Assembly (NCBI RefSeq): GCF_003334315.1 | Contig: NZ_QOWR01000100.1 | DNA from: Escherichia coli | GTDB taxonomy: Bacteria > Pseudomonadota > Gammaproteobacteria > Enterobacterales > Enterobacteriaceae | Strand: one strand, 5' to 3' | DNA length: 4,320 bases | Part shown: in pieces, positions 1,871 to 2,261 of the stretch | How positions within the stretch are numbered: position 1 is the first letter of the stretch | Layout of the letters: each line of letters starts with the position of its first letter | The notes under the pieces: model-generated | The model's database searches: none | Told to the model about the DNA's origin: nothing | Seen by the model: only the letters and a program-made list of their open reading frames with translations | Made by a program: the position numbers and the translations under genes

Positions 1871-1916
1871 CCGGGAAAAGATTTCCCGCCCGTCCCGGCG
1901 TTATCAGGAGGCCGGA

Positions 1917-2261
1917 TTGGCAGACAAACGCAGCAAAATGCTCACGATGTGGGTGACCGAAGATGAGCACCGCCGTCTGCTGGAGCGCTGCGACGGTAAA
2001 CAGCTTGCAGCCTGGATGCGCCAGACGTGCCTGGACGAGAAACCCGCCCGCGCCGGCAAGCTTCCCTCGCTCTCGCCGGCGCTGCTTCGTCAGCTTGCCG
2101 GCATGGGGAACAACCTCAACCAGATTGCCCGGCAGGTTAACGCCGGTGGTGGCAGCGGGCACGACCGCGTGCAGGTCGTCGCCGCGCTGATGGCCATCGA
2201 TGCCGGACTCGAGCGGCTGCGGCATGCCGTGCTGGAAAAGGGTGCAGACGATGATCGTTAA
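1917..2261 (+). CDS. mbeC: Mobilization accessory protein MbeC/MobC (relaxosome component)
   Basis: Product contains MLTMWVTEDEHRRLLERCDGKQLAAWMR, which matches ColE1 MbeC and the pBR322 mob remnant (MKRERMLTIRVTDDEHARLLERCEGKQLAVWMR) as recalled. Strong SD AGGAGG at 1906-1911 lies 5 nt before a TTG at 1917; the alternative ATG start is at 1938. Stop TAA at 2259-2261 overlaps the mbeA start. Confidence 0.75.
   Translation: MADKRSKMLTMWVTEDEHRRLLERCDGKQLAAWMRQTCLDEKPARAGKLPSLSPALLRQLAGMGNNLNQIARQVNAGGGSGHDRVQVVAALMAIDAGLERLRHAVLEKGADDDR

Follow-up and report, generated by a model that had tools for sequence, protein, structure and literature searches.

The mbeC (mobC) gene of plasmid pK is, with a probability that we put at about 0.87 from comparison of sequences, translated from the TTG codon at 1917 to give a product of 114 residues, and the internal codon for Met8, ATG at 1938, would then not be its main start. 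All positions herein given are those of the window, the whole stretch of 4,320 nucleotides that was analysed. Plasmid pK of Salmonella enterica serovar Enteritidis (NC_003456.1), recorded as a circle of 4245 bp and classified by MOB-suite typing as mobilizable, MOBP, agrees with the window at 100% identity, and positions in its record are converted into those of the window by adding 1050. Bases 1-75 of the window are repeated exactly at 4246-4320, the 4320 bases being made up of the 4245-bp circle plus 75 bases of wrap-around. The mbeC start site is flanked by the ColE1-type replication origin/oriT region, in which the oriT fragment is placed at about 1760-1905, and the mob operon. In the latter, the ORF for mbeC (114 aa, 1917-2261) is followed by a relaxase-like ORF that opens at 2251, and the region of the relaxase frame houses two more ORFs, to which RefSeq gives the names MbeB-family and MbeD-family. 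The relaxase-like ORF and mbeC share 11 nt (the stop codon of mbeC is at 2259-2261), and the same layout is found in related plasmids, in which the relaxase gene is annotated directly after mobC and overlapping with it. The features of the start region are listed in Table 1.

Table 1. Features of the mbeC start region and its downstream neighbour (window positions)
Feature	Position	Strand	Basis or remark
Shine-Dalgarno (SD) sequence AGGAGG	1906..1911	+	Read from the sequence; anti-SD duplex -10.3 kcal/mol; kept in relatives
Spacer CCGGA, 5 nt	1912..1916	+	Variable sequence, fixed length
TTG initiation codon of mbeC/mobC (proposed true start)	1917..1919	+	First start after the stop at 1740
Codons 2-7 (A D K R S K), basic N-terminal arm	1920..1937	+	K4 at 1926-1928, R5 at 1929-1931
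Internal ATG (Met8), start in RefSeq/PGAP	1938..1940	+	In frame, 21 nt 3' of TTG
Full mbeC/mobC coding sequence	1917..2261	+	114 codons plus stop, with TTG start (ORF listing)
Downstream relaxase (MbeA-like) ORF	2251..3747	+	ORF table; contains MIVKFHPRGRGGG... from ATG 2251

The arrangement on which the sequence-only reading was based, i.e. AGGAGG followed after a gap of 5 nt by the TTG that opens the ORF, is exact in both the sequence and the ORF listing. For evaluation of the SD sequence, the pairing with the anti-SD was calculated using ViennaRNA duplexfold against ACCUCCUUA, and each value was expressed as a percentile among all 20-nt windows of the plasmid. The pairing in front of TTG 1917 (-10.3 kcal/mol) falls at the 1.6th percentile, while that in front of ATG 1938 (-2.6 kcal/mol) stands at the 60th percentile, that is, at the background level, with AGGAGG as far as 26 nt away, confirming the earlier claim that this ATG carries no comparable SD sequence. 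At the spacing of 5 nt, the complementarity of AGGAGG lies within the distance of 4-9 nt from the start codon by which an SD sequence is recognized. The hexamer by itself is unremarkable, since shuffled sequences give an expectation of 2.17 and the window has 2; what goes beyond chance is that it stands at a fixed place ahead of a start codon in frame, and that some 100 related loci conserve it. On the 5' side the closest in-frame stop is TGA at 1740, from which the mbeC frame is open, and no in-frame ATG, GTG or TTG is present in the window between 1740 and 1917. The folding of mRNA around the start was considered as a further line of evidence and was rejected as not decisive: in the MFE fold the SD sequence is partly paired, its unpaired probability being about 0.5, the A-rich stretch at 1921-1937 is only moderately structured, and a small hairpin in the fold of the start region is not kept in the relatives carrying CTG (see below).

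Close relatives were collected from PLSDB plasmids, from 100,044 species genomes by a family-alignment scan, and from one metagenome scan, the last of which was anchored on the downstream WVTEDEH codons so that the start region was not conditioned on. The census of the subfamily comprised 99 loci with a complete start region, representing 60 distinct start-region sequences, and substitutions were counted as parsimony steps on a tree constructed from codons 9-113 only. The codon homologous to 1917 is NTG in all 99 loci (TTG in 79, CTG in 13, ATG in 5 and GTG in 2), and its three bases took 6, 0 and 0 steps, the TG never being altered. In the spacer all five bases are variable, at 9-10 steps apiece, while its length is held at 5 nt (4 nt in three variants), and the SD sequence is AGGAGG, AGGAGA or GGGAGG in nearly all of the 99 loci. 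Within codons 2-7 the steps are distributed as 10, 10 and 34 over the first, second and third codon positions, and this coding periodicity of substitutions starts exactly at the NTG, with none upstream. All of the 17 substitutions inferred for K4 (0, 0 and 2 steps at the three bases), R5 (1, 0 and 6) and K7 (0, 0 and 8) are synonymous, Lys4, Arg5 and Lys7 being invariant as residues in the subfamily (AAA/AAG for lysine and CGC/CGG/CGT/AGA for arginine). Over all the relatives, Arg5 is written with six codons (CGC, CGG, CGA, CGT, AGA and AGG) and Lys4 with AAA and AAG. The restriction to synonymous changes, together with the use of six codons for Arg5, points to selection on the translated peptide, not on the DNA.

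The CTG codon at the start position is carried by 13 of the 99 loci, for instance in K. pneumoniae pBK13048-7, with AGGAGG kept at 5 nt (start regions L003, L023, L025, L092, L113, L137, L185 and L188). The two CTG sublineages, whose identity over the remainder of the gene is only about 87%, show 0-1 synonymous differences in codons 2-7 and 2-3 base differences in the spacer, and a sister of the CTG-clade sequences (L136) has GTG at the start position. In a separate and more diverged locus (L027), CTG stands behind GGGAGG, and codons 2-7 differ by two synonymous changes and a replacement of Asp by Glu. It may be held against the start at TTG that the codon in these 13 loci is a poor one, and that the ATG could matter there. 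On the sequence comparison, natural initiation at CUG by the mobC genes of this clade is possible, at somewhat less than even odds; alternatively, the clade may have switched to the internal ATG (Met8). To our knowledge, CUG starts have almost never been confirmed in enterobacteria. If the initiation at CUG is true, the choice among AUG, GUG, UUG and CUG could be an evolutionary dial for the dosage of the relaxosome protein.

The start upstream of the Lys-Arg pair is also observed in more distant relatives. A gene with 73% identity (L005) has ATG, preceded by a GGAGG SD sequence, exactly at the position of TTG, and Phe at position 8. Since Met is absent at position 8 in this and other loci (L008, L009 and L033-L048), no start is available to them except on the 5' side of the Lys-Arg pair. 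In all the homologues taken from Klebsiella, E. coli Nissle, Acinetobacter, Serratia, Pectobacterium, Yersinia, Pseudomonas and Neisseria, the start lies 1-6 codons before this pair, and Ser, Glu, Ala, Ile or Gln stands at the position of Met8. An alignment of MobC homologues, named beforehand as a way of checking the start, came out in favour of the long form, K4 and R5 being invariant columns among 22 sequences of the family down to 47% identity.

ColE1 MbeC is described as a relaxosome accessory protein (Varsaki et al. 2009, J Bacteriol 191:1446; as related in PMC5675868 and PMC4175270). Like ColE1 mbeC, the gene of pK is the first mob gene, adjoins oriT and lies directly before the relaxase gene, and its product, with 68% identity to the ColE1-type protein, has the same predicted two-domain layout, a NikA-like ribbon-helix-helix (RHH) domain plus MobC, and the K-R pair ahead of the strand. 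The ColE1/pMB1-type genes begin with ATG or GTG followed by K-R-E-R-M-L-T-I-R-V, and MKRERMLTIRV aligns with (M)ADKRSKMLTMWV, K4R5 of the window being placed over K2R3. In support of the longer form, the sequence-only reading had aligned ADKRSK with KRER of the pBR322 mob remnant; this register holds for natural ColE1/pMB1-type plasmids, while pBR322 itself is absent from the collections queried, its mob remnant presumably carrying the same sequence as the ColE1-type locus L006.

The two genes also differ: ColE1 mbeC has upstream ATG codons (MIPMKRERM...) and no TTG, its SD sequence is a weak GGGG, and rop sits between oriT and mbeC. In addition, the strand Arg of ColE1 MbeC (R13 in the 115-aa numbering) is replaced by Trp12 in pK. 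This tryptophan (1950-1952) stands within LTMWV in 73/73 unique start-region sequences of the subfamily, against LTIRV in the ColE1-type proteins, and the replacement of Arg would suggest a different specificity of DNA recognition in the pK subfamily. Three in-frame start candidates, MIP-M-KRER-M, are present in the ColE1-type mbeC genes (L216 1843-1869; L004, L006 and L007), the second being GTG in L007 and L029, and the forms in use are of 115 aa (apparently that of the literature), 112 aa (L004) and 107 aa (PGAP). The 115-aa form of ColE1, MIPMKRER..., has a computed mass of 12,898 Da and carries Arg13 in the strand. ColE1 MbeC is reportedly a protein of 12.9/13 kDa, and R13 is said to be essential for DNA binding from the behaviour of an R13A mutant; the 115-aa form fits both this size and this position, the numbering being deduced indirectly.

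With respect to the protein, the Pfam family NikA-like (PF21983) matches residues 4-73 from model position 2 (E = 4.6e-9), and the MobC family (PF05713) matches residues 57-101 over the full model 1-45 (E = 8.2e-14). No family match for the mbeC product was obtained in NCBIfam, and the profile search of PDB sequences matched no solved homologue. The AlphaFold monomer (mean pLDDT 68) contains helices at residues 15-24 and 30-39 with no strand called, and residues 1-7 are of low confidence, as expected for the flexible arm of an obligate dimer; a monomer model cannot show an intermolecular strand or arm, and gives weak support in this respect. Ahead of these two helices, the strand can occupy residues about 7-13. 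According to the RHH strand rule, hydrophobic residues occupy the strand positions 3, 5 and 7 (PMC4175270), and when these are mapped to L9, M11 and V13, position 1 of the strand becomes K7, upstream of the ATG. A start at Met8 would thus leave nothing ahead of the DNA-reading strand, with loss of the family-invariant KR pair. Trypsin cleavage after K7 gives MLTMWVTEDEHR from both the 114-aa and 107-aa forms, the intact masses of which are 12.4 and 11.8 kDa, respectively. The pK MbeC resembles NikA of R64 and the NikA-like family, which are RHH proteins binding oriT, in its Pfam match and predicted helix-helix core, but NikA is without the C-terminal MobC domain arrangement. A distant relative, an RHH accessory protein of 176 aa, is likewise encoded by the first gene of a mobC-relaxase operon, and the binding of this protein to an operator at the promoter of its own gene suggests by analogy a way in which dosage control could apply in pK.

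Taken together, all the comparative tests favour the long form, supporting the proposal of the sequence-only reading that mbeC initiates at TTG. As a model for the initiation, AGGAGG five bases 5' of TTG 1917 would position the 30S subunit, and the SD-led initiation at UUG would yield a MobC-family relaxosome accessory protein of 114 residues. The segment (M)ADKRSK would serve as a basic arm placed immediately ahead of the beta-strand in the predicted N-terminal RHH DNA-binding domain, to be followed by the C-terminal MobC domain, and ATG 1938 would specify an ordinary internal methionine (Met8) next to the beta-strand. With Ala as the second residue, the initiator Met is expected to be removed, so that the mature protein would begin with ADKRSK. 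We infer that K4, R5 and K7 contact oriT DNA, and, by analogy to the MobC/MbeC accessory proteins, pK MbeC would bind oriT and stimulate nicking and mobilization. The combination of a weak start codon with a strong SD sequence would set the dosage of MbeC, and the interchange of TTG, ATG, GTG and CTG among the close relatives is compatible with such tuning of dosage. UUG is counted among the efficient start codons, with 10-100% of the activity of AUG, and is used by about 3% of E. coli genes, while a CUG start gives 1-2% of AUG in reporters (bioRxiv 10.1101/063800). With a near-cognate start behind a consensus SD sequence at near-optimal spacing, pK mbeC is like ordinary bacterial UUG genes and shows no mechanistic difference from them, only the CTG-bearing sister clade being unusual. 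In the literature on mbeC or its close homologues, we found no N-terminal sequence, toeprint or ribosome profiling.

The use of both starts, in which TTG directs the 114-aa protein and ATG 1938 directs a minor isoform of 107 aa without the basic arm and with weaker or altered DNA binding, is improbable. Internal in-frame starts do occur in bacteria, the surroundings of this ATG are rich in A, both the subfamily and the ColE1-type MbeC show strong conservation of Met8, and the CTG clade might lean more on the ATG; but an SD sequence for the ATG is lacking in every lineage, including the CTG clade, and ribosomes elongating from TTG would occlude a site located 21 nt downstream. Moreover, other residues take the place of Met8 in the wider family, one member of the subfamily (L184) has ATT instead of the internal ATG, and the conservation of Met8 is equally well explained by its location beside the beta-strand.

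An exclusive start at ATG 1938 (107 aa), which would make AGGAGG and TTG either incidental or conserved at the level of DNA as part of oriT or an operator, is less probable still. It is the choice of PGAP for both the TTG-type records checked (7/7) and ColE1, ATG is the strongest start codon (bioRxiv 10.1101/063800), Met8 is kept in 72/73 unique start-region sequences of the subfamily, and the A-rich stretch in front of it is only moderately structured. This explanation, however, requires initiation at a codon with a background level of anti-SD pairing, and a constraint on DNA leaves unexplained both the variation restricted to third positions and the encoding of Arg5 by six codons. Furthermore, homologues without Met8 exist, and the short form loses the family-invariant K4 and R5 together with positions 2-5 of the NikA-like model. 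As to translation from further upstream, with TTG as an internal Leu codon of ORFs of 150-200 aa, the frame is indeed open to 1740, a protein of 184 aa (P0001) and others have been called with long extensions, and L, M and V at codon 1 are conservative replacements, but it is hardly conceivable, for the interval from 1740 to 1917 offers no in-frame ATG, GTG or TTG, read-in from upstream is excluded by TGA directly before TTG in three loci (L024, L147 and L167), differences of one base in the length of the spacer break the upstream frame in three others (L011, L020 and L132), and the region 5' of TTG is without codon periodicity.

In RefSeq, the pK gene is annotated by PGAP at 888..1211 of the record, corresponding to 1938..2261 of the window, as a protein of 107 aa (WP_001347450.1), and the short form starting from ATG was adopted in 7/7 of the TTG-type records that were checked, six of them from RefSeq and one from GenBank. 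The situation is alike for ColE1 (NC_001371.1, 1867..2190), for which the PGAP start is the third in-frame ATG (107 aa), while the longer forms keep KR, and the short form is also used in other ColE1-type records. The PGAP start is probably seven codons short in pK, and 5-8 codons short in the ColE1-type genes. Two records labelled "Mobilization protein MbeC" give longer products (L002, 114 aa; the ColE1-like L004, 112 aa), and many database proteins are of 114 aa, some of them written with a literal leading L, the public annotations thus being in real conflict. The protein family and the mechanism of initiation are known, and the long form is already in some public annotations; the finding herein described is an ordinary correction of start site and annotation, with no new biology. 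About 3,000 PLSDB plasmids carry a MobC relative, and cloning, expressing or aligning the RefSeq ORF would mean dealing with a protein cut at its DNA-binding end, without K4 and R5.

Probable errors in the opposite direction are also found in the databases. For P0001 (184 aa), P0010, P0022, P0023 and similar entries, the ORF has been extended by 40-90 codons upstream through the oriT region, leading to products of 150-200 aa, one cluster of which contains 200 member sequences. These products are very likely artefacts of an open, GC-rich frame; such long upstream extensions of mbeC were ruled out by the in-frame stops and the frame-breaking indels in the spacer.

Upstream of the start region, an inverted repeat, CGGGAAA-AGA-TTTCCCG, is located at 1871-1888 (within 1864-1901), about 18 nt 5' of the SD sequence. 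Hardly any change is seen in its 7-bp arms over about 95 related loci, in contrast to the loop of 2-4 nt, which is hypervariable (AGA, GGC, GCC, GAA, GGT, CA and others). When folded as RNA, the repeat has an energy of -17.6 kcal/mol (z = -2.5). It could be an oriT site or a binding site for a relaxosome protein, or a hairpin in the 5'-UTR. A scan of the segment 1600-2300 for promoters and terminators found none, and the mob transcript might conceivably begin downstream of 1917, a point that counts against the start at TTG.

On the downstream side, the window contains an intact relaxase (MbeA-like) ORF of 498 aa from ATG 2251. The PLSDB gene tables of pK and ColE1 (L216) list no relaxase CDS, which probably reflects a gap in the tables or a pseudogene flag arising from the nested mbeB and mbeD, and not a real loss. 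Another ORF, for a hypothetical protein, is present on the + strand at 3772-4290; its first codon is ATG 3772, which is preceded at 7 nt by AAGGGA, while the RefSeq start is ATG 3814 (2764 of the record). The longer form of this product begins MKCFWACSVSVVLVMSFTVASA/EN, and resembles, by eye, a complete signal peptide, which the start at ATG 3814 would cut short; this may be a second case of misannotated start site on the same plasmid.
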